This document shows positions 3,696 to 42,897 of a stretch of 42,897 nucleotides of DNA, one piece after another. The notes beneath the pieces were generated by a model. That model was given only the letters and a program-made list of their open reading frames with translations, made no database searches and was not told the DNA's origin. Within the stretch, counting starts at the first letter, position 1, and the number at the start of each line of letters is the position of its first letter. The stretch lies in assembly GCA_029955215.1 (NCBI GenBank), contig GCA_029955215.1_4351.1. One strand, written 5' to 3'. The stretch is from a phage. The position numbers and the translations under genes are program-made.

Positions 3696-3754
3696 ATCCT
3701 AACCGTGCTATCCTCCAGTTACTGCATACTTAATACGCACCTGGAGGATTCATC

Positions 3755-4063
3755 TTGGATAAATTTACTGAAACAGTGACAGGCTGGCTTCTCGCTGCCG
3801 CACTAGCCGGAGGGGTAATCGGACTAAGGCAACATAAGTCCGCTATTTCCGGCCCTATCGACGGATTCTGCTTTATCGCAACTGGCTTCACTTGCGCTGT
3901 ATTTGGCGCACCTCTCGCGGCGCAATGGTTTGGCATTACCGGAGAACGCGAGATAGCTGGCCTGGGCTTCATTATTGCTATTCTCTGGATGCCTATCTAT
4001 TCCCGTCTCTCCGGTATCGTCGCTGGAGAATACATCGCACGTCGAGGAGGCACAGATGAATGA
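3755..4063 (+). CDS. holin-like membrane protein (TTG start, 102 aa)
   Basis: Multiple hydrophobic helices; GGAGGA RBS 3743-3748; directly upstream of endolysin. Confidence 0.55.
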   Translation: MDKFTETVTGWLLAAALAGGVIGLRQHKSAISGPIDGFCFIATGFTCAVFGAPLAAQWFGITGEREIAGLGFIIAILWMPIYSRLSGIVAGEYIARRGGTDE

Positions 4064-4328
4064 GTTATTCTGGTTCGGCGGTATGCTGGCAATTGGAGGC
4101 ACATCGCTGTTTAATGTATACCACCCCAGCGTTGACGACGGGTTATTCGGCCGGGTGCTCTATATCCTGACTGCTATTGTCTGCGCCGCTGGGTGTATCC
4201 ACCTGTTACAGGGCAGCATGTCACCTACGTTGCCGGAGACATTAATCGCATTAGTTGCGCTGCGTCAGGTTCGTCAGGCGTGGCTGTCATACGGAGGACA
4301 TAAGCGTGTCTCGAAACATTTCAGATAA
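4056..4328 (+). CDS. second small membrane protein of lysis cassette (holin/antiholin-like, 90 aa)
   Basis: ATG 4056 after GAGGAGG RBS; two predicted TM segments; ORF track start 3975 is probably too far upstream. Confidence 0.5.
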   Translation: MNELFWFGGMLAIGGTSLFNVYHPSVDDGLFGRVLYILTAIVCAAGCIHLLQGSMSPTLPETLIALVALRQVRQAWLSYGGHKRVSKHFR

Positions 4329-4794
4329 TGGGTTGCATTTTACCGCTGCGTTCGAGGGATTCCGCGGCACTGCGTATCGCGCGACACCAAACGAGAAGTA
4401 CCTGACTATTGGTTACGGAAGTTATGGCCCGCATGTTAAGGTGGGACAGACCATCACGCCTGGTCAAGGCCTCCTGTTACTGAATCGCGATATGGCTAAG
4501 GCCGTAGCTGCGGTTGACGCAGCAGCACACCATTCATTGACACAGGCTCAGTTCGACGCAGTGTGTGACTTGGTTTATAACGCAGGCGCTGGCGTGATTG
4601 CAGCTACTACAGGCACTGGTAAGGCGCTACGCTCAGGCGATATTGCGACGTTGCGGGCTAAGCTGGCACTATTCATCAACCAGAACGGCAAACCATTACT
4701 TGGCCTGCGCCGCCGTACCGCCGGTCGTCTGGCGCTGTTCGACGGTAAACCGTGGCAGGAGGCGGAGGCTATCGGGCGCGCGGTGAAAGGTTGA
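4306..4794 (+). CDS. endolysin, phage lysozyme (GH24, lambda R / P22 gp19-like)
   Basis: TIGYG..., QAQFDAVCDLVYNAG and LRRRTAGRLALF resemble the P22 gp19 / lambda R lysozyme family; GTG 4306 after GGAGGA RBS (start uncertain). Confidence 0.8.
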   Translation: MSRNISDNGLHFTAAFEGFRGTAYRATPNEKYLTIGYGSYGPHVKVGQTITPGQGLLLLNRDMAKAVAAVDAAAHHSLTQAQFDAVCDLVYNAGAGVIAATTGTGKALRSGDIATLRAKLALFINQNGKPLLGLRRRTAGRLALFDGKPWQEAEAIGRAVKG

Positions 4795-12678: not shown

Positions 12679-13380
12679 ATGAATCGTTTTTTACGTTATC
12701 CGTTCCAGGAAGAAGCTGGGGCAGAAGATAAAGCTGGTGGCGGCGACGCGCCGAAAATGTTCACCGCTGAAGAAGTTCAGGCGATTATCGAGAAAGAAGT
12801 TGCCGGGCTTAAGGCTAATCAGGAAGCATTGCTGGCGGAGAAGAAAGAAGCCGCTCGTAAAGCAAAAGAGGCCGAAGAAGAACGGCAGCGCGCACACCAG
12901 GAGGCGTTAAAAGCCGCTGGTAAAATGGACGAGTTTGAAAAGACGATTCGTAGCCAGTATGACCCGGTGTTAGCTGAGAAAGATGGTCGCATCTCCAGAA
13001 TGGCAGAGCGCATCCTCGGCAGCGAACGTAAGGCGGTGTTAGGCTCTTTCGCTGGTGACTTTATTACCCCGGAAGCAGTGGACATCCTTGCGCCGTTCGT
13101 TAAGACTGAGTTTGAAGGCGATGACGTGGTTACTAAGTTTGTCGGCGCAGATGGCAACGTAATCACGACTGACCCGGAACAGTTCCGCAAATACCTGCGT
13201 GAACACAAAGCGTTTTCGCATTTGATTAAAGCAAATGCAGCTTCCGGCGGCGGGGCTTCCGGTGGCAAAGGCGGCGGGGCCGCACCAGCGTTTAAAGACA
13301 TGAGTGAAGCGGAGCGTTTAGCTCTGTATAAATCGAACCCTGCCGAATTTGAACGGCAACTTAAAGCCCTGAGGAAATAA
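12679..13380 (+). CDS. scaffolding protein (putative)
   Basis: Directly upstream of major capsid gene; Ala/Glu/Lys-rich coiled-coil character. Confidence 0.6.
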   Translation: MNRFLRYPFQEEAGAEDKAGGGDAPKMFTAEEVQAIIEKEVAGLKANQEALLAEKKEAARKAKEAEEERQRAHQEALKAAGKMDEFEKTIRSQYDPVLAEKDGRISRMAERILGSERKAVLGSFAGDFITPEAVDILAPFVKTEFEGDDVVTKFVGADGNVITTDPEQFRKYLREHKAFSHLIKANAASGGGASGGKGGGAAPAFKDMSEAERLALYKSNPAEFERQLKALRK

Positions 13381-13382
13381 TA

Positions 13383-14432
13383 ATGGCAATTACCACTATC
13401 GGCGATATCGTAACTGGCAACATCCCGGTCCTGGCGTCTTATATGACCGAGGACCCGGTAGAGAAAACCGCGTTCTTCCAGTCCGGTATTCTGACCCCGA
13501 CCCCGTACGCCGCTGAGATTGCCCGCGGTCCGTCCAACATCGCCAACATTCCTTTCTGGAAAGCGATTGATACCTCTATCGAGCCTAACTACTCGAACGA
13601 TGTGTATCAGGACATCGCTACCCCGCGTAATGTGCAAACCGGTGAGATGATGGCCCGCGTTGCGTACCTGAACGAAGGTTTTGGTCAGGCGGACCTGACT
13701 GTTGAACTTACCAGCCAGAATCCGCTGCAATCCGTGGCGTCCCGTCTGGATAACTTCTGGCAGCGCCAGGCGCAACGCCGTCTGATTGCTACCGCGCTCG
13801 GCCTGTACAACGACAACGTAGCCGCTACCGATGCTTACCACGAGCAGAATGACATGGTAATCGACGTGTCCGCTACTCTGGGCTTCGACTCCGGCGCGTT
13901 CATCGACGCTACCCAGACTATGGGTGATGCTCTGATGGGCAACGGCGGTGAAGTGTTGGGTGCTATCGCGATGCACAGCTTCGTTTATGCGCAGGCGCGT
14001 AAGCAGCAGCTTATCGACTTCATTCGTGATGCTGACAACAACACCATGTTTGCCACCTACCAGGGCTACCGTGTGATTGTTGACGACAGCATGACCGTAG
14101 TCGGTACCGGCCCGAGCCGTAAGTTCATCTCCATCATCTTTGGCAATGGCGCTATCGGTTACGGCGAAGGCTCCCCGGCCAATCCGCTGGCCTACGAGCG
14201 CGAAGAATCCCGCGGCAACGGCGGTGGCGTTGAAACCCTGTGGACCCGTAAGACCTGGTTGCTGCATCCACTGGGCTACAGCTTCACCAGCACAGTAATC
14301 ACCGGTAACGGCACCGAGACTGTCGCACGTTCTGCTTCCTGGCAGGACCTGGCGAACGCCTCCAACTGGAACCGTGTGGTTGAGCGTAAGCATGTACCGA
14401 TTGCCTTCCTGGTAACTGGTGTCGGGGCTTAA
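13383..14432 (+). CDS. major capsid protein
   Basis: 349-aa ORF after scaffold, strong codon bias, followed by stoichiometry-type hairpin. Confidence 0.8.
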   Translation: MAITTIGDIVTGNIPVLASYMTEDPVEKTAFFQSGILTPTPYAAEIARGPSNIANIPFWKAIDTSIEPNYSNDVYQDIATPRNVQTGEMMARVAYLNEGFGQADLTVELTSQNPLQSVASRLDNFWQRQAQRRLIATALGLYNDNVAATDAYHEQNDMVIDVSATLGFDSGAFIDATQTMGDALMGNGGEVLGAIAMHSFVYAQARKQQLIDFIRDADNNTMFATYQGYRVIVDDSMTVVGTGPSRKFISIIFGNGAIGYGEGSPANPLAYEREESRGNGGGVETLWTRKTWLLHPLGYSFTSTVITGNGTETVARSASWQDLANASNWNRVVERKHVPIAFLVTGVGA

Positions 14433-14449
14433 GGTTAAGATATAATCGG

Positions 14450-14475
14450 GAGGGACTTCGGTCCCTCTTTTCATT
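14450..14475 (+). terminator. rho-independent terminator after capsid gene
   Basis: gagggac-ttcg-gtccctc followed by ttttcattt. Confidence 0.65.
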
Positions 14476-25333: not shown

Positions 25334-25695
25334 ACATTAATTCTTATACTGGTCTTCCGTATGATTTTCGCCGCCGTAATTGCTGGCACCATGTGTGTAA
25401 CGTTCGCGCGGACGCGGGGCTCCCCACGCCCGAGTTTAACGTCGCTTCGCCAACACAGATTAATGATGCCTTTGAAGAAGGCCATAAAGACACTAAAGGC
25501 CTAGTACACGTAGAAACTCCGCAAAACTTCGATGTCGTTCTGATGGCAACGCGGCACAGAAACCGTGTAATCTGGCACGCTGGCGTATATTATGGTGGTA
25601 TGGTCAGTCATTGCGAGCTAGCTAGTCGCCAGGTACGGTTAGACCGACTGGAAGACTTGCGCGAAACTTATGCGGAGATAGAATTTTGGCGCTGA
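25330..25695 (+). CDS. tail-associated NlpC/P60-family peptidase (gpK-like, putative)
   Basis: NCWHHV (candidate Cys nucleophile) and IWHAGVY (candidate His); 121 aa. Confidence 0.55.
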   Translation: MNINSYTGLPYDFRRRNCWHHVCNVRADAGLPTPEFNVASPTQINDAFEEGHKDTKGLVHVETPQNFDVVLMATRHRNRVIWHAGVYYGGMVSHCELASRQVRLDRLEDLRETYAEIEFWR

Positions 25696-28241
25696 TATTA
25701 CACTACACCCGTAACGAAGACGGTACTTTCGACCGCAAACGGTACAACGTACCGCCGATGGAATACGTCGTTGCTAACATCCCTGACGGGGTGCCGGTAC
25801 GTATTTACCGGGGCGAGATTGGCGAGGATACGGAAGTAACGGAAGATTTCGAAGCGCTGAAAGAAGACGACGTATTCCATATTATCGAAGGTGCTGGTGG
25901 CGGTGGCGGTTTTCTCGGAAAACTGCTTGACCCATTGGGTGTGCTTAAGTTTATCACTAAACTGATTTCCCCGTCGCAGAAAACGCCTAAAACTAGTTTA
26001 GCTAACCAGCAGGCGGAGTCGCCAAACAACAACCTGACGGACCGAAACAATAAACCTCGCCCGTATGAGCGGTCGTATGATATTTGCGGCAGGGTACAGA
26101 CTATCCCTAATGACCTCATGACTACCTATAAAATATTCGATGAATCCGGCCGAATTATCGAGTATGGATACTACGACGCCGGTCGAGGTTACCTGGATAT
26201 CAAAGCAGAAGACATTACTGACGGCGATACTAAAGTACAGGAGATTACAGGTACATCTGTCGCGGTGTATGCGCCGTTTACATCGCCTAACAATACAAAT
26301 ACTCCTCAGCTTCTGGTGGGGGAACCTATCAATCAGAATCTTTATATAACTATCGCTTCTAATGAAGTAGACGGAGCCGTTCTTAAAGCCCGTAACGATA
26401 TAAGGGTTAACCCTAGCGACACGGGCCGTGTGAGATATGACTCTGCTACAAAAATTGGATACCTGTATGATGGCACGGGGGATTCTGGCTTCGCGGAAAT
26501 ATTATCTGTTGGCGATACCGCGTCGTTCAATAACTTTGACGTTCCGGACGTAACAAATACCAACGGCAACTTTCGTGTTCTTTATGTCGATAACTTCGAG
26601 CTGCGGGTCGACACCGGCGGCGCGTCTAACTGGGCTGCTTTAGGTTCAACCACCTATTCACTTTCCCCGAGAAGTGACACGTGGGTGGGCCCTGTGAATA
26701 CGTATGAAAGAACATTAACCGACTGGACCACCTTAAACCGCCTGGAAGTTGAACGAGTAGTTGCTAACATTGCCGCCGCGAATGGCATGTACAAGGACAA
26801 CGGCAGTAAATTGCGCACCGCTGTAACTGTAGAGCTTCAATATCAGCTACTAGATGAATCCGGGGCGCCGTACGGAAGCATTTACTCGAAACAGGCCACT
26901 ATATCCGGGCGGTCCGCAGATTACACCGGGGTCACCATTTACGCCGACCTGCCCGTGCGGTCGAAAGTCAGGGTACGCGCCCGGCGTGTTACCAACCTGG
27001 ACCTCGATTTCGAGGGCACCGTGGTAGACGAGGTTTCCTACATCAACCTTTACGGGCAGGTCCGCGACACTACGCCGCATTACGGCAACCGTACTACTGT
27101 ACACTCTGCACGTAAGCAGACGCCGCGGGCCGCAGAGATTAAGCAGCCGCAGCTACGTATGGTCGCGACGGAGATGGTGTACAAATACCTCGGCAACGGC
27201 GTATTTGACGCGGTTATGACACCTAATACCCAAGCCGTTCAGTCGTTAATACGCCTGGCGCGGGACCCAGTAGTAGGAAACCTCAATCTCACCACGGCTA
27301 ACATGGATAAGTTGTTGGCTACGCAAGCAGAGATTGAAAATTATTTCGGAAATGCTGAGGCTGGGCAGTTCTGCTACACATTCGATGATTACAAAACGAC
27401 TATGCAGGACATCATCAGCACAATAGCTGATGCTATTTTCTGCACGCCATATCGTAAAGGGCAAGACATATTACTGGATTTCGAGCGCCCTCGTATGGGG
27501 CCGGAGATGGTATTCACCCACCGCAGTAAAACAACGGCATCCGAGAGGTGGACTAGGACATTCAACGACGCTCAGGTATACGATAGTCTTAAGTTCTCCT
27601 ACATCGACCCAGATACCAACGTAAAAGAGACTATTAGCATTCCAGCCGAGGGTGGTGTTAATACCGAAACGTATGACTCCAAGGGTATACGTAATTATCG
27701 CCAGGCGTACTGGGCGGCGTACCGCCGCTACCAGAAAAACCTGTTGAAGAAGGTAACGGTATCATTCACGGCGACAGAAGAAGGGATTTTTGCAATGCCT
27801 GGGCGTGCGGTAAGTGTGGTAAAAGGTTCGCGTATGGCTCCACAAGACGGCTATGTAATCGCCGTTAACGGGCTTACGCTTACTCTTTCTCGGCCGGTCG
27901 CGTTTACTCCTGGGGATGACCACTCACTGATTCTTAAGAAGCGAGACGGGGGAGTTCAAAGTGTTGCCGTTGTGCCTGGAAGCCACGACCGTGAAGTGGT
28001 TATGCTATCCGCGCCGCAGGAGGCAATTTACACGGGGAATAGCGCACTAAAAACTGAGTTTTCATTCGGCAACGAAGCAAGGCATAATGCTCAGATGATT
28101 CTTGTTTCTACAGTTGACCCCGGAGATGACAGAACAGTTAAGATTACCGGGATTAACTATGAAGCAGATTTCTATAAATACGACGGCGTCGCGCCTTTCG
28201 GGCGCGGTTTCTCCGACGGATTCAGCAACGGTTTTAGTTAA
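25686..28241 (+). CDS. tail tip / central tail fiber protein (gpJ-like, putative)
   Basis: 851 aa in the distal tail block; poly-Gly linker GAGGGGGFLG; start codon ambiguous (TTG 25686 or ATG 25758). Confidence 0.6.
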   Translation: MALILHYTRNEDGTFDRKRYNVPPMEYVVANIPDGVPVRIYRGEIGEDTEVTEDFEALKEDDVFHIIEGAGGGGGFLGKLLDPLGVLKFITKLISPSQKTPKTSLANQQAESPNNNLTDRNNKPRPYERSYDICGRVQTIPNDLMTTYKIFDESGRIIEYGYYDAGRGYLDIKAEDITDGDTKVQEITGTSVAVYAPFTSPNNTNTPQLLVGEPINQNLYITIASNEVDGAVLKARNDIRVNPSDTGRVRYDSATKIGYLYDGTGDSGFAEILSVGDTASFNNFDVPDVTNTNGNFRVLYVDNFELRVDTGGASNWAALGSTTYSLSPRSDTWVGPVNTYERTLTDWTTLNRLEVERVVANIAAANGMYKDNGSKLRTAVTVELQYQLLDESGAPYGSIYSKQATISGRSADYTGVTIYADLPVRSKVRVRARRVTNLDLDFEGTVVDEVSYINLYGQVRDTTPHYGNRTTVHSARKQTPRAAEIKQPQLRMVATEMVYKYLGNGVFDAVMTPNTQAVQSLIRLARDPVVGNLNLTTANMDKLLATQAEIENYFGNAEAGQFCYTFDDYKTTMQDIISTIADAIFCTPYRKGQDILLDFERPRMGPEMVFTHRSKTTASERWTRTFNDAQVYDSLKFSYIDPDTNVKETISIPAEGGVNTETYDSKGIRNYRQAYWAAYRRYQKNLLKKVTVSFTATEEGIFAMPGRAVSVVKGSRMAPQDGYVIAVNGLTLTLSRPVAFTPGDDHSLILKKRDGGVQSVAVVPGSHDREVVMLSAPQEAIYTGNSALKTEFSFGNEARHNAQMILVSTVDPGDDRTVKITGINYEADFYKYDGVAPFGRGFSDGFSNGFS

Positions 28242-28253
28242 AGAGGACTCTAT

Positions 28254-30344
28254 ATGTCAAGCGGATGCGGTGACGTTTTAAGCTTGGCGGATTTACAAAC
28301 CGCCAAGAAACACCAGATTTTTGAAGCCGAGGTTATCACCGGTAAATCCGGCGGTGTTGCTACGGGAGCTGATATCGATTACGCGACCAACCCTGTTACC
28401 GGCCAGACTCAAAAGACGCTACCCGCCGTGTTGCGTGACGCTGGTTTTTCGCCCGTGTCATGGGACTTCGCCACTGGCGGTACGTTAACAGTTAGTGACC
28501 GCGACAAAGTGGTGTACGACCCTGTAAGTGAAACATGGTACTCATACGCAGGTACACTACCTGTTACAGTCCCCGCTGGTTTTAACCCTGTTGGTAATGC
28601 GGACTGGAAGCCGCAGACAGACCCGGATTTGAGGTCCGATTTAACCGCCCCATCATCGGGTCTTATTGTCGATGCATCCAATATTTTCATCAAAGCTAGT
28701 TCTCCTGGTACAAAGGATGTTCCGTTAAACACATTTGCGGGCCAGATGGTTAGTTTACTTAATTTCCAGGGAGTGGTAGCCGATGGTATAACCGATACAC
28801 GAGCCGGGGTGCAAGCTGCGATAGACGCGTGTGCTCTCGCTGGGGTTACGTTATATATCCCAGACGGTGTGTATGCTTTCGGAAACTTCTTCACCCAACC
28901 TTCTAATTCTAAGCTAGTTTTCGGTGAAAATGCATGGTTTAAACTACTAAATAACACCACCTGGCCTGGGCTTGGCGGTATAGGCCACTTCCACAACACC
29001 GGAACTAACTACAATGATTTCCTTAATACGGACGGTGAAACTATTAAGTATGTAGAAGCTACCAATGTAGTCACTGTAGGAATGAAGCTGGACTGTAACA
29101 ATATTGAGGGTGAAAACGGCATTTCATCAGCATGGGGTTCTAATATCCGCCATATCCGCCCTATAGTTAAGAATACAGTACACACAAACACCGCTCTAGG
29201 CGGTAGGGCGTTTCAGATAGAAGGTGAGCTAAACCAAGATATTGTAGTATCAGATGCCACTATTATTGATTGCTCTATTGGGTGCAATAGCCAAGGTTTA
29301 GCAGGCAGCACAACCGCCAACACCCGCGCAGTAACTTACGACGGTATTTTCATGAAAAATGTTGGAGTACCATTTAACATCGATGGGCAGGTATCCAACC
29401 CCGAAACCGCAGACGGCAGAGTACATTCAGTAACCGCATACAATGTAACATTGCATAATTGTGGCGGGCCGAAAGCACCATTTGCATCCCAATTAGACGG
29501 CGGCATTATTTGCGGGGATCGTGGGGCTGGTTTAGCAATATACGGTCTTCGTTTGATAAATGAGGATTCTTATGGTGGTATAGGCGCGGTGTTTAGAGGG
29601 GTTATTTATAACGTAGCTATACACGACGCAGATTTAACAGCCCCTTATATTAGTGCCATTGTCGACCACACTCCGCCGGGGTTTGGCTCACCATCACTGG
29701 CAGCATTAGGCGGTTTTGTGTCGACAAGGAACGTTAAAGTAAACGCGAATATTGACTACATAGCTAATGGGCCTAACAACAGTATAGGTCCTCACAGCCT
29801 TAGATTAGATATAGATATGGCTAAGGCATCTATTACAACATTGTTTGGTTCGAGCATAGCCTCGGACCCTACCACGCTGGCTATGGTGGAAATATTAGAT
29901 ACCAACACCGGGACAAGTAGTGGGTATCGGTCCTTTGGGGACATATACCGTGAAGGCAACTCCCCATCTGTCTGTATAAAACGAAAAGATTCCATCGGGC
30001 CTGTAGTCCCGGTTGATGCGTCTGGCGCGAGTCTACCCCTTACCCCTAATGGGGTCCAACGTTTTGTTAGAAATGGAAATACCGTCACAATATCTATCGA
30101 TGTAACTTACCCAACCACAGCGGACTCTCGCCCTGCGACCATATCAGGTATTCCGGTTCCAGGAGTAACAGGAGTAAATTATTGCGGCATTGGTACTGTT
30201 CTTAACGGTGCTGCTGTTGGTACTATTGCGGTGGTTAAAGGTGGGGAAAATTTTATAAGACTTTTAACTCCAACCGGCTCCAATACCCTAAACAGTGATT
30301 TATCTGGTAAAAATATTTCTATATCACTTACGTATATGTTCTGA
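28254..30344 (+). CDS. tailspike with right-handed beta-helix (pectate-lyase-like) depolymerase domain
   Basis: 696 aa; GITDTRAGVQAAIDACALAGVTLYIPDGVYAF signature typical of beta-helix tailspikes; AAGAGGA RBS. Confidence 0.75.
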   Translation: MSSGCGDVLSLADLQTAKKHQIFEAEVITGKSGGVATGADIDYATNPVTGQTQKTLPAVLRDAGFSPVSWDFATGGTLTVSDRDKVVYDPVSETWYSYAGTLPVTVPAGFNPVGNADWKPQTDPDLRSDLTAPSSGLIVDASNIFIKASSPGTKDVPLNTFAGQMVSLLNFQGVVADGITDTRAGVQAAIDACALAGVTLYIPDGVYAFGNFFTQPSNSKLVFGENAWFKLLNNTTWPGLGGIGHFHNTGTNYNDFLNTDGETIKYVEATNVVTVGMKLDCNNIEGENGISSAWGSNIRHIRPIVKNTVHTNTALGGRAFQIEGELNQDIVVSDATIIDCSIGCNSQGLAGSTTANTRAVTYDGIFMKNVGVPFNIDGQVSNPETADGRVHSVTAYNVTLHNCGGPKAPFASQLDGGIICGDRGAGLAIYGLRLINEDSYGGIGAVFRGVIYNVAIHDADLTAPYISAIVDHTPPGFGSPSLAALGGFVSTRNVKVNANIDYIANGPNNSIGPHSLRLDIDMAKASITTLFGSSIASDPTTLAMVEILDTNTGTSSGYRSFGDIYREGNSPSVCIKRKDSIGPVVPVDASGASLPLTPNGVQRFVRNGNTVTISIDVTYPTTADSRPATISGIPVPGVTGVNYCGIGTVLNGAAVGTIAVVKGGENFIRLLTPTGSNTLNSDLSGKNISISLTYMF

Positions 30345-30349
30345 TAACT

Positions 30350-30371
30350 AAGGCCCCAACGGGGCCTTTTA
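30350..30371. terminator. bidirectional rho-independent terminator
   Basis: aaggcccc-aac-ggggcctt followed by tttta; between convergent tailspike and minus-strand module. Confidence 0.8.
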
Positions 30372-30513: not shown

Positions 30514-30698
30514 TCGAACTCCACCAAATCACCGTTAAAGAACTCGGCAACTATATAACCAGAATCGGGGTCATAGTCTGCTATACTTTCTGCTCCGCTT
30601 TCATCCACCACTCGGTACTCTATGCCGTTGTAGATGGTCTGGTATTCCTCGCCTTCTATAAAATCATCGATTGTGGAACTTACGCAAAACAGTTTCAT
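30510..30698 (-). CDS. hypothetical acidic protein (62 aa)
   Basis: ORF coupled to helicase gene. Confidence 0.45.
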   Translation of the reverse strand: MKLFCVSSTIDDFIEGEEYQTIYNGIEYRVVDESGAESIADYDPDSGYIVAEFFNGDLVEFE

Positions 30699-32119
30699 TT
30701 CTTACCTCGTCTCTTCATGTAATTAAGCAACTCTTCCTGGACAGATTTCTTCTCGTCCGTACGCGCGGCAACAACCTCGTCCAGCGTGTCTTTAGCGACG
30801 ATATGATAGAGGAACACCGGGCGCTCGTGGCCTGCCTGTTTCTGGCGTACAGGGCCTATACGCTCGACGACCTGCAAATAGTGCTCAAGGTTCCAGCCTT
30901 GCGAGATGAATGCCAGATGATGCCCGCCGTCCTGTAAATTCAAACCATGCCCGGCTGACGCAGGGTGTACGCATAAGATTTCGATTTCCCCGCGGTTCCA
31001 CGCTTCCATCTGCTTATTGCCCTTAGCACCTTTTGCGAACGCCTGCGCCTGCGGGAATCGCTTAAGGATGCGCTCCAGTTCGTGCTTAAACTGATAGGCC
31101 ACCAGTAACGGCGCCCCCTGTAACTCCTCAACAATTGACTCCAGTGCGTCCAGTTTTGTGTCGTGCACTTTCTCCCATTCTTTCGTCGCTTCGCCGTCTG
31201 GCCCCGACACATACACGGCACCGGAGGCAATTTGCAAGCACTTTGACGTCTTCGCCGCGGCGTTAGCCGCCTCAACTTCTCCGCTCTCCAGTTCCGCGAA
31301 TAACTTCTCCTCCATATCTATGTACGCCTGACGTGCTTTCTTCGGCAGGTCGATTTCCACCGGTACGATAACAGGCGCTTCACATCCGAACCACTCGGCG
31401 GCGTCAATCGTGAGACTAATGTCCTTCATCTTCTGGTGAATCTCATTATCCGCACCCGGGCGCGCATGATATTCACGGGCCATAGCTGATTTGCCTTTCT
31501 GTACCGAGTTAAACCAGCGGTCGGTGAATGCCGTATATGAAGAACCAAGACGCTCGCCCGCGTCGATAAACCAGTTCTGCCCCCACAAGTCTTTGAGGCC
31601 GTTTGGTGATGGTGTGCCGGTGAGGTTAATGAATCGCTTGACCTTGCCGAACGCCACTTTACTAAGAGCCTTCGCGCGCTTGCTTCCGCCGGAACGGCTG
31701 CGGAACGATTTCAGCTTCGTGCTTTCATCGGCAACGATAACCGTAAAAGGCCAGTCGTCTTTGCCGTAGTAGTCAATCAGCCACTCGATAACTTCGTAGT
31801 TAGTGCACACCACGTTGGCGTCTGACTCCAGCGCCGCGATACGGCGCTTCTCTGAGCCAGTGGCATCGACGACGCGCAGACACGGGAAACCCCACTTAGT
31901 TTGTTCTGCGGGCCACGTACCAGACGCAACACGTAACGGGGCGAGGATTAACACGCGGTCCTCTTCCGTAAGCTGCCCGTTGCGGAACAGGCGGTTTAGA
32001 ACCCACATCGTTGCGGAACTTTTGCCCGCGCCCATCGAGGCCCAAATATTACAGCGCGGATGCCGTAGCATGAACGAAGTCATGAGTTTCTGGTACTCTC
32101 GCCTTTGAAACTTACTCAT
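30695..32119 (-). CDS. SNF2/DEAD-like superfamily-2 helicase
   Basis: Walker A GAGKS, DESTK box, LTGTPSPNGL motif; start set at ATG after gaggtg RBS. Confidence 0.85.
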   Translation of the reverse strand: MSKFQRREYQKLMTSFMLRHPRCNIWASMGAGKSSATMWVLNRLFRNGQLTEEDRVLILAPLRVASGTWPAEQTKWGFPCLRVVDATGSEKRRIAALESDANVVCTNYEVIEWLIDYYGKDDWPFTVIVADESTKLKSFRSRSGGSKRAKALSKVAFGKVKRFINLTGTPSPNGLKDLWGQNWFIDAGERLGSSYTAFTDRWFNSVQKGKSAMAREYHARPGADNEIHQKMKDISLTIDAAEWFGCEAPVIVPVEIDLPKKARQAYIDMEEKLFAELESGEVEAANAAAKTSKCLQIASGAVYVSGPDGEATKEWEKVHDTKLDALESIVEELQGAPLLVAYQFKHELERILKRFPQAQAFAKGAKGNKQMEAWNRGEIEILCVHPASAGHGLNLQDGGHHLAFISQGWNLEHYLQVVERIGPVRQKQAGHERPVFLYHIVAKDTLDEVVAARTDEKKSVQEELLNYMKRRGKK

Positions 32120-32375
32120 TTTGCAAATCACCTCGTTCTTTGGCGAACCTTAACGCCCTTCTGGCGGCCGATGAGTTTGAAGTATATCTGTGGCCGCATG
32201 TTTTGCATTCTAACTTCGGCGTTCCGTTTTTAGTTTCTCCGATAACAATGACATTACGCCACCTGATAAAGCTACTGTCTCTGTGGCCGTCTCTGGTGGA
32301 AAATGATGACGCAAGCCAGGCGCCCTCCCACTCCCGCAAACACTTAACACATCGCAAGCTATGATGTACTGTCAT
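32112..32375 (-). CDS. zinc-ribbon protein (87 aa)
   Basis: CVKC ... CKTCGH cysteine pairs. Confidence 0.45.
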   Translation of the reverse strand: MTVHHSLRCVKCLREWEGAWLASSFSTRDGHRDSSFIRWRNVIVIGETKNGTPKLECKTCGHRYTSNSSAARRALRFAKERGDLQNE

Positions 32376-42798: not shown

Positions 42799-42897
42799 CA
42801 TATCTCTTAAGTAACTGATTTTCTTAATGTGCCGTAGATTCGCAACCGTAAAAATGTAACGATTATTGGGCAGGCTTAGGGCCTGCCCTTTAGTTAC
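42799..42897. repeat. Right copy of exact 99-bp direct repeat
   Basis: Identical to 1-99; the window ends exactly at the end of the repeat. Confidence 0.9.

Follow-up and report, generated by a model that had tools for sequence, protein, structure and literature searches.

Tailspike cassettes determine the host range of O-antigen-dependent phages, and phage and tailocin engineers need exact module boundaries to graft specificity onto other chassis. In Kagunavirus, the tailspikes are encoded directly 3' of the J-like central tail fiber gene and are described as enzymatic (PMC11990801). A Virol J 2023 study (PMC10408124) describes an anchor at the genus level, a receptor-binding domain (RBD) at the serogroup level and transfer across Kaguna-, Nouzilly- and Lederbergvirus, with conserved junction motifs for the modules. 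It places the receptor-binding proteins of Ro145c2YLVW, P818 and the FHI58 prophage in one O145 subtype that is spread by horizontal transfer. The related phage Ro145clw plated on O145 strains only, and its 2019 paper described the locus in comparison with K1G as "tailspike absent, tail fiber ORF_21 present" (PMC6627115). When the O145 RBD of FHI58 was placed on an R2 tailocin, the killing was turned to an O145 strain (PMC11762384). The 'big six' non-O157 serogroups include STEC O145, for which an engineering paper (PMC12737597) reports having found no satisfactory tailspike candidate in the literature. Here, we analyze the tailspike gene of a phage contig (the window, the whole stretch of 42,897 nt). 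With high confidence, the best explanation of the whole is that the gene encodes the only tailspike of a siphophage in the genus Kagunavirus (Guernseyvirinae), built of modules with different histories.

The tailspike locus

The ORF listing returns exactly the reading frame that the earlier note had named as a tailspike, on the + strand and 696 aa long (Table 1). The J-like protein encoded upstream has a weak Pfam match to Phage-tail_3, and its counterpart in phage Sciku carries the annotation tip attachment protein J. The tailspike slot 3' of the J-like tail protein is the same in five other Kagunavirus genomes, and the order of J-like gene, spike and convergent replication module is found in the window, phiWAO78-1, ST20, fTaEco03, fPoEco01 and Sciku, in agreement with the placement described for Kagunavirus spikes (PMC11990801). 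Ro145clw and Ro145c2YLVW, both Kagunavirus, carry the same anchor and cassette at the same locus in what is essentially the same gene, with 99.8–99.9% nucleotide identity over the full length. The window is nevertheless a different strain: of the first 25 kb, 89% align to Ro145c2YLVW at 96% identity, and it has a size of 42,798 bp compared with 42,031 and 42,145 bp for the two Ro145 phages. Where the 2019 paper saw an absent tailspike and a tail fiber, our comparison finds one locus with a swapped cassette.

Table 1 Features of the tailspike locus, with positions in the window
Feature	Position	Strand	Description	Basis
J-like central tail fiber / tip attachment protein gene	25686..28241	+	851 aa, upstream of the tailspike gene	ORF listing
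Tailspike (receptor-binding protein) gene	28254..30344	+	ATG start, 696 aa, TGA stop 30342-30344	ORF listing
Anchor module	28254..28634	+	Codons 1-127	tblastn breadth, PHROG families, end of Kagunavirus nucleotide homology
Anchor-end stretch	28591..28634	+	44 nt, likely left crossover site	Junction alignments
Linker/neck	28635..28745	+	aa 128-164	Predicted disordered in monomer model
Right-handed parallel beta-helix	28746..29978	+	aa 165-575	AF2, Foldseek, family profile
C-terminal beta-sandwich head domain	29979..30341	+	aa 576-696	Fold search
Stem-loop	30350..30373	+	AAGGCCCC-AACG-GGGGCCTT then TT(A)TC	Read directly from sequence

The assembly of the window is circular and has a 99-bp overlap at its termini, typical of de novo assembly, and a mosaic gene could in such an assembly come from joining two phages of one sample. 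The chance of this is negligible: a chimera is refuted by two independently isolated and sequenced phages, the Ro145 phages, which share the gene over its full length at the identity given above, and the identical protein cluster is present on five contigs.

Module boundaries

That the first roughly 130 codons are conserved, as the earlier note held, is borne out by tblastn with aa 1–132, which matched 608 phage records, mostly Guernseyvirinae (506 of the 608 cover at least 80% of the query), and by matches of the same residues to 11 tail spike/fiber families in PHROGs (best E 7e-49). Amino acid identity is 78–92% to Kagunavirus spikes and approximately 60–70% to Jerseyvirus spikes, and over gene nt 1–380 the nucleotide identity is 82–89%. 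The first half of the anchor is Guernseyvirinae-specific and is followed by a small Tail_spike_N-like beta domain at aa ~66–121 (AF2 pLDDT 73–89 for residues 66–121; Pfam Tail_spike_N score 17.7, under the cutoff of 25). For residues ~56–132 alone, there are further matches to Ackermannviridae spikes and to proteins of Klebsiella phages. Judging by homology and position, residues 1–127 would form a genus-conserved anchor that fixes a presumably trimeric spike to the tail tip; the anchor of Ro145c2YLVW is given as 124 aa (PMC10408124, supplement file 1).

The module boundary is at codon ~127 (window ~28634). Across five other Kagunavirus genomes with five different cassettes, nucleotide homology to the window is lost at 28448–28633, that is, no later than codon 127, and is back at 30344–30350 with 92–96% identity. 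Between these points, in the region after codon 127, no nucleotide homology to the spikes of the five genomes was detected, and the flanks of the cassette are 77–96% identical to other Kagunavirus.

The likely left crossover site, as judged from the junction alignments, is the anchor's terminal 44-nt stretch, which occurs once in the window. It is kept in phiWAO78-1, ST20 and L010, each of which diverges right after it, and two Ackermannviridae-like contigs (L011 and L012) have it with three mismatches. It resembles 'motif one' of PMC10408124 in position and length only. Identity to the Ackermannviridae-like copy of the cassette runs through the stretch, which points to it as the crossover actually used. 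The linker has 93–96% nucleotide identity to L011 but only 50–70% to P818, so the left junction differs among the carriers of the cassette. From the observed boundaries, we infer a crossover mechanism behind the exchange. At the other end, the stem-loop downstream of the stop codon is likely a terminator that forms the right edge of the variable cassette; the corresponding site 3' of the spike in Sciku is annotated as a bidirectional terminator, and a consensus terminator scan did not flag the hairpin.

Distribution and composition of the cassette

The cassette (566 aa) has full-length matches in just four records, with amino acid identities of 99.6–99.8% to the Ro145 phages and 93% to P818. 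At the nucleotide level, it is 92.7% identical to the tail fiber gene of P818, a member of the Drexlerviridae (Nouzillyvirus), and 89% identical to an Ackermannviridae-like contig of 152 kb, in the latter from gene nt 286 onward. The anchor that precedes it in the Ackermannviridae-like contig, as in P818, is a different one. More distant copies (37–73% aa identity) are found in T7-like, two-spike and epsilon15-like contexts, with T7-like and epsilon15-like N termini in front of them, and a search of 1.84 billion proteins gave 36 cluster representatives at E ≤ 1e-30. In P818, the shared part runs from aa ~133 to the C terminus and both proteins end at the stop codon, whereas the N terminus of P818 is unrelated and longer (~250 aa), with a coiled fiber-like region. 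The tail fiber gene of P818 adjoins replication genes instead of a J-like gene and has a different downstream terminator of its own; our literature search found no paper on phage P818. Judged from these matches, the cassette is circulating among unrelated phage lineages.

The earlier note had proposed module swapping of the receptor-binding domain, and this is supported by an anchor that is collinear with hundreds of Guernseyvirinae spikes next to a cassette found in other families at 92.7% and 89% nucleotide identity. An even composition together with homology that is collinear with close relatives over the full length, which the note had set against swapping, is seen only in the sister phages Ro145clw and Ro145c2YLVW and not in the rest of the genus. 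Exchange of the cassette across phage families is real, ordinary and already published for the sister phage, and the locus adds a clean example of it and no new principle. The Ackermannviridae-like carrier is new relative to PMC10408124.

Gene nt 1–390 have a GC content of 52.6% (GC3 51.5%) and gene nt 391–2091 of 45.4% (GC3 38.6%), compared with 50.5% across the whole window and a GC3 of 0.54–0.68 in 12 long ORFs of the window. The 1,701-nt remainder lies at the 1.4th percentile of GC among window segments of equal size, and the contrast at the junction has a z of ~2.6–2.7 (two-proportion estimate from GC counts). The AT-richer remainder that had been placed at about 28.9–30.3 kb is real but modest, and it begins at ~28.64 kb. 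A change-point test on composition only did not recover the module junction and instead placed the change at the final ~100 nt of the ORF, where GC is 29.6% (p ~0.03); hence, composition alone would not have proved mosaicism.

This composition could also be explained by the codon and amino acid demand of beta-helix RBDs, in a gene that diverged fast in place and has no foreign origin. The cassette is rich in Asn (8.1% versus 2.3% in the anchor) and Ile (8.5% versus 2.3%), which have AT-rich codons, and the GC drop at codon positions 1–2 in part reflects this Asn/Ile-rich helix. Divergence in place would also fit the equally AT-rich cassettes of all five other Kagunavirus genomes (45–47% GC versus 51–56% in their anchors), the lack of an amelioration signal and the change-point that misses the junction. 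However, GC3, which is not set by amino acid content, falls from 51.5 to 38.6%. The cassette is 89–93% identical at the nucleotide level to genes in two unrelated phage families and has no detectable nucleotide homology to other Kagunavirus spikes despite the conserved flanks, which together contradict divergence in place as the sole explanation and leave it very improbable.

When the third carrier serves as outgroup to polarize the substitutions, AT-to-GC changes number 22 versus 21 on the lineage of the window, which is no excess; this count gives no amelioration toward higher GC and no direction of transfer. The cassette has 45% GC in all three carriers (window, P818 and Ackermannviridae-like contig). 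This matches the ~45–46% of the other carriers (46.1% for the P818 genome and 44.7% for the Ackermannviridae-like locus L011) and not the 50.5% of the backbone, which weakly suggests Kagunavirus as the more likely recipient. All Kagunavirus cassettes share this low GC, which counts against reading the direction of transfer from GC.

Fold, specificity and activity

The AF2 model of the protein has a pLDDT of 78.5, with strands from residue 165 to ~550, values of mostly 80–95 in the helix blocks and values below 50 for residues 123–163. With Foldseek, 125 PDB structures are matched at E ≤ 0.001, of which the top ones are all tailspikes; CBA120 TSP3/TSP1, Det7, HK620 and Sf6 are matched at a probability of 1.0 with 10–15% identity. 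The family profile reaches the tailspike of Sf6 (E 9e-13, a match confined to the first rungs) and also the beta-helix adhesin PfbA. By phmmer, the full protein has just two weak matches among PDB sequences (the N-terminal part of tail fiber 9lna, and PfbA). The PHROGs search found no family for the beta-helix, and in the Pfam search of the query none of PF12708, PF13229 and PF00295 was above the gathering threshold, with PF00295 (Glyco_hydro_28) coming closest at 19.6 versus 22.9 bits; several relatives carry precomputed PF12708 (pectate lyase-like) matches. The family-invariant residues include D280, E287, N288, R318, Q321, E323, Q347, D422 and R423. The helix differs from that of P818 at 70 nucleotides, of which 54 are third codon positions, with only 13 amino acid changes in 410 codons, which indicates purifying selection.

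All cassette relatives with a recorded host have an O145 host, among them Ro145c2YLVW (STEC O145) and P818 (O145). The substrate, which the earlier note considered not predictable from the sequence alone, is in this respect predictable by homology. In PMC10408124, a protein belongs to a subtype if its RBD shares at least 30% amino acid identity with that of a validated member, and the RBD of the window is 99.6% identical to that of Ro145c2YLVW and 93% identical to that of P818. The direct O145 evidence is that of FHI58, whose RBD is a distant relative of the cassette. The O145-restricted near-identical phages and the O145 hosts of other carriers suggest that the cassette (linker, helix and head, residues 128–696) would recognize the E. 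coli O145 O-antigen. Bounded by residue ~128 and the stop codon, it is a candidate O145 tailspike for engineering.

The beta-helix is presumed to be the domain that both binds and cleaves the O145 O-antigen, and the cassette probably cleaves as an endoglycosidase. Cleavage would proceed via acidic residues among D280, E287, E323 and D422 and would give the J-like central fiber access to the outer membrane. The solved O-antigen endoglycosidases (P22-like, Det7, Sf6, HK620 and CBA120 tailspikes) are 10–17% identical, with sequence similarity confined to the first rungs; their catalytic residues are not transferable to the cassette. Their substrates also differ, given that the O145 O-antigen contains sialic acid (PMC7685785). 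With no PHROG family, no above-threshold Pfam match and no solved relative beyond the first rungs, it is a tentative possibility that the helix represents an uncharacterized endoglycosidase family that cleaves sialic-acid-containing O-antigen via D280/E287/E323/D422, a chemistry that would differ from that of the beta-propeller endosialidases of K1 phages.

Non-depolymerizing tailspikes exist, and the spike of Dickeya phage PP35 is reportedly a deacetylase. The cassette might bind the O145 O-antigen without depolymerizing it, as a pure adhesin or as a modifying enzyme such as a deacetylase. The activity of the cassette family is a prediction, both the profile and the fold search match the adhesin PfbA, and the choice of the term 'RBP' in PMC10408124 is deliberate, as enzymatic activity is often unknown. 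We nevertheless consider this unlikely: D280, E287, E323, Q347, D422 and R423 are invariant across members that are 28–35% identical overall, which exceeds the needs of the fold, the Pfam search shows neither an esterase nor an SGNH domain, all of the closest folds belong to O-antigen endoglycosidase tailspikes, and Kagunavirus spikes are called enzymatic in PMC11990801.

A true pectate-lyase-type enzyme acting by beta-elimination is harder still to credit. The PF12708 matches of the relatives and a weak match of the family profile to pectate lyase 5olp (E 1.4e-4, N-terminal rungs) are in its favor, but these matches cover only the first rungs (profile ~160–260) and are shared with hydrolases and epimerases, and the top structural neighbors are hydrolase tailspikes. 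Polysaccharide lyases act at uronic acids. For the O145 O-antigen, PMC7685785 names the sugars Neu5Ac, L-FucNAm and GlcNAc, none of which is a uronic acid. The 'pectate-lyase-type beta-helix signature' of the earlier note holds as a fold superfamily (AF2, Foldseek and profile), but its best Pfam match is below the cutoff and the signature is in itself no evidence for lyase chemistry. Nor does the signature extend to GH28, for which the motifs are NTD, G/QDD, GHG and RIK: the 696-aa protein has only a non-conserved NTD at residue 258, and no DD, GHG or RIK anywhere.

For the C-terminal domain, a profile of the domain alone found no relative among PDB sequences, and the assignment as a beta-sandwich comes from the fold search. 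We considered this domain as an independently swapped third module and rejected it, given that it is co-inherited with the helix in 20 of 20 aligned family members. Beyond the cassette family, the domain is also found in short proteins and following central domains of other kinds. In orf157 of Dickeya phage PP35/LIMEstone1 (Limestonevirus, 204 aa), the last 117 aa share 51% identity with residues 577–694; the protein has no beta-helix, and the head directly follows an Ackermannviridae-type N-terminal domain, which resembles that of P0008/P0009. By its appearance, orf157 would derive from a full spike of the cassette family by deletion of the helix.

Results

The phage is a further strain of the Ro145 group, given that the first 25 kb of the window match the closest record, Ro145c2YLVW, at 96% identity over 89% of their length. 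At the nucleotide level its tailspike gene is 99.9% and 99.8% identical to those of vB_EcoS-Ro145clw and vB_EcoS-Ro145c2YLVW, both Escherichia phages (Kagunavirus, Guernseyvirinae). An identical 99-bp repeat at both window ends (1-99 and 42799-42897) is what a k=99 assembler leaves on a circular contig, and the window is therefore a circular assembly of ~42.8 kb (true genome ~42,798 bp). The J-like gene is followed by the spike, a hairpin 3' of its stop (AAGGCCCC-AACG-GGGGCCTT) and minus-strand replication genes; in phage Sciku the site equivalent to the hairpin carries a bidirectional terminator annotation.

Coordinates of the spike locus, the cassette edges and the modelled domains
Feature	Position	Strand	Detail
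J-like tail protein, precedes spike gene	25686-28241		851 aa; ORF listing
Tailspike ORF	28254-30344	+	696 aa; ORF listing
Left edge of cassette, 44-nt stretch	28591-28634		encodes VGNADWKPQTDPDLR
Right edge of cassette, TGA stop	30342-30344
Helicase, in replication-gene block 3' of hairpin	30695-32131	-
Small beta domain	residues 66-121		AF2 model
Linker, low confidence	residues 123-163		AF2 model
Beta-helix	residues ~165 to ~550		AF2 model
C-terminal beta-sandwich head	29979-30341		AF2 model

The earlier note had described the spike as an apparent mosaic of a conserved anchor and a possibly swapped module; the mosaic is confirmed and module swapping is supported. The first ~130 codons are indeed conserved: residues 1-132 matched 608 phage records (tblastn; Kagunavirus 78-92%, Salmonella Jerseyvirus 60-70%) and 11 PHROG tail spike/fibre families, and residues ~56-132 alone further matched Ackermannviridae spikes and Klebsiella phage proteins. 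Full-length matches to residues 131-696 were found in four records only, three from Ro145 phages plus phage P818; the last ~118 residues additionally match a short Dickeya phage protein. Against five Kagunavirus genomes with five different spikes (phiWAO78-1, O78; ST20, host O165:H8; fTaEco03, K1 endosialidase; fPoEco01, K5-lyase-like; Sciku), homology is lost at 28448-28633 and returns at 30344-30350 in all five, with 92-96% identity there. The Kagunavirus sequences part from one another directly after the 44-nt stretch.

Swapping is further supported by the presence of the cassette (residues 128-696) in other phage families. In P818, a Nouzillyvirus of the Drexlerviridae with E. coli O145 as host and a genome of 46.1% GC, the cassette matches at 92.7% nucleotide identity between window position 28650 and the stop codon and follows an unrelated N-terminus of ~250 aa. 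Nucleotide identity is 89% from gene nt 286 onward in a metagenomic, Ackermannviridae-like contig of 152 kb, and likewise in a second sample; the match extends across the 44-nt stretch, with 3 mismatches, and across the linker. Linker identity to the window is 93-96% in this copy versus 50-70% in P818, hence the left junction is staggered among carriers. Inside the helix, identity profiles are patchy, which suggests further recombination. Searching 1.84 billion representatives exhaustively gave 36 proteins at E <= 1e-30. Copies that are more distant (37-73% amino-acid identity) follow an N-terminus of the T7 tail-fibre type, belong to a locus with two spikes or come from an epsilon15-like prophage.

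The AT-richer 3' part reported earlier is real though modest (spike nt 1-390, 52.6% GC and 51.5% GC3; nt 391-2091, 45.4% and 38.6%), but it begins at ~28.64 kb, not 28.9 kb. The window overall has 50.5% GC, nt 391-2091 lie at the 1.4th percentile for GC among same-size windows, and twelve long window ORFs have a GC3 of 0.54-0.68. At codon positions 1-2, the abundance of Asn and Ile in the helix explains some of the decrease. Cassette GC is 45% in all three close carriers; since the cassettes of the five Kagunavirus genomes compared lie at 45-47% too (versus 51-56% for their own anchors), low GC is a property of the shared cassette pool. It is nearer to the carriers of ~45-46% GC than to the Kagunavirus backbone, which favours, without proving, Kagunavirus as the recipient. 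Amelioration toward GC on the window lineage was sought and no bias was seen (22 AT-to-GC versus 21 GC-to-AT changes). A change-point test on composition alone did not recover the module junction and chose the last 100 nt (29.6% GC, p ~0.03); this final stretch (30246-30344) is the strongest compositional break within the gene.

The "pectate-lyase-type" label holds for the fold and lacks support for the chemistry. The AF2 model (mean pLDDT 78.5) has the CBA120 TSP3/TSP1, Det7, HK620 and Sf6 tailspikes as Foldseek neighbours (probability 1.0, 10-15% identity), and a family profile matches Sf6 tailspike (E 9e-13), PfbA, alginate epimerases, a pectate lyase and an exopolygalacturonase, all confined to the first helix rungs. 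No GH28 signature motifs were found in the spike and all its Pfam matches were under threshold, so the label describes a fold.

When a wide range of STEC and Salmonella strains was challenged with Ro145clw, only O145 strains gave plaques (PMC6627115). The receptor-binding proteins of Ro145c2YLVW, P818 and the FHI58 prophage have been assigned to one O145 subtype (PMC10408124), and the receptor-binding domain of FHI58, a distant member, killed an O145 strain when placed on an R2 tailocin (PMC11762384). We infer that the helix cleaves the O145 O-antigen, which contains Neu5Ac, L-FucNAm and GlcNAc (PMC7685785), most likely by hydrolysis. Candidate catalytic residues would be some among the invariant acidic D280, E287, E323 and D422. 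Window and P818 helices differ by 13 amino-acid against 70 nucleotide changes, and the helix is under purifying selection.

Discussion

The window spike is a standard modular tailspike of a kind previously described. Its mosaicism, anchor boundary (124 aa), O145 assignment and sharing with Nouzillyvirus and Lederbergvirus are already covered, and conserved junction motifs have been proposed as recombination hotspots (PMC10408124). Here, we add details only: cassette boundaries placed to the base for the present genome, an Ackermannviridae-like carrier with identity running across the junction motif, low GC common to Kagunavirus cassettes without amelioration, a Det7-like and widely distributed head domain, and a reading of Dickeya phage PP35 orf157 as a helix-less derivative. 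Ro145clw was said in 2019 to lack the K1G tailspike and to have an extra tail fibre (PMC6627115); a single locus whose cassette was exchanged is the better reading.

PP35 orf157 (3746-4360 of its locus, 204 aa), a short "tailspike" without a beta-helix, has an Ackermannviridae-type N-terminal domain fused straight to a head 51% identical to window spike residues 577-694, and resembles what a spike such as P0008, which has the same N-terminus type, would leave after loss of its helix. Many exhaustive-search matches (P0054-P0163) were confined to the ~115-aa head, in proteins of 127-1023 aa, many of them short (130-270 aa) and some with fibre repeats or a different beta-helix N-terminal to it; P0071 reads as having a hydrophobic, signal-peptide-like N-terminus. 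None of ten proteins scanned had a Pfam match over the head.

In both Ackermannviridae-like contigs (L011 and L012, 7400-7470) a +1 frameshift at a run of seven G (TTTAGGGGGGGTT; window counterpart TTTAGAGGGGTT) breaks the O145-type spike into two ORFs. Both samples share the change, for which a sequencing error in the homopolymer, a pseudogene or slippage could account. In the epsilon15-like prophage with the distant member P0014, an Acyl_transf_3 gene (L015, 7406-8410) comes next after the spike and may be an O-antigen-modifying seroconversion gene. Long antisense ORFs over the plus-strand structural genes (12819-14474, minus strand, 551 aa) and within the spike gene (28409-28999, minus strand, 196 aa) are probably by-products of codon bias, not genes. 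In blastn, phiWAO78-1 shows no homology to segment 26297-27026 of the J-like gene and ST20 none to 26492-27026; Sciku, fTaEco03 and fPoEco01 align uninterrupted across the segment. The segment could be a smaller, second patch of mosaicism, located in the central tail fibre gene, and the adjoining ~26600-27300 is the GC-richest part of the region (53-60%).
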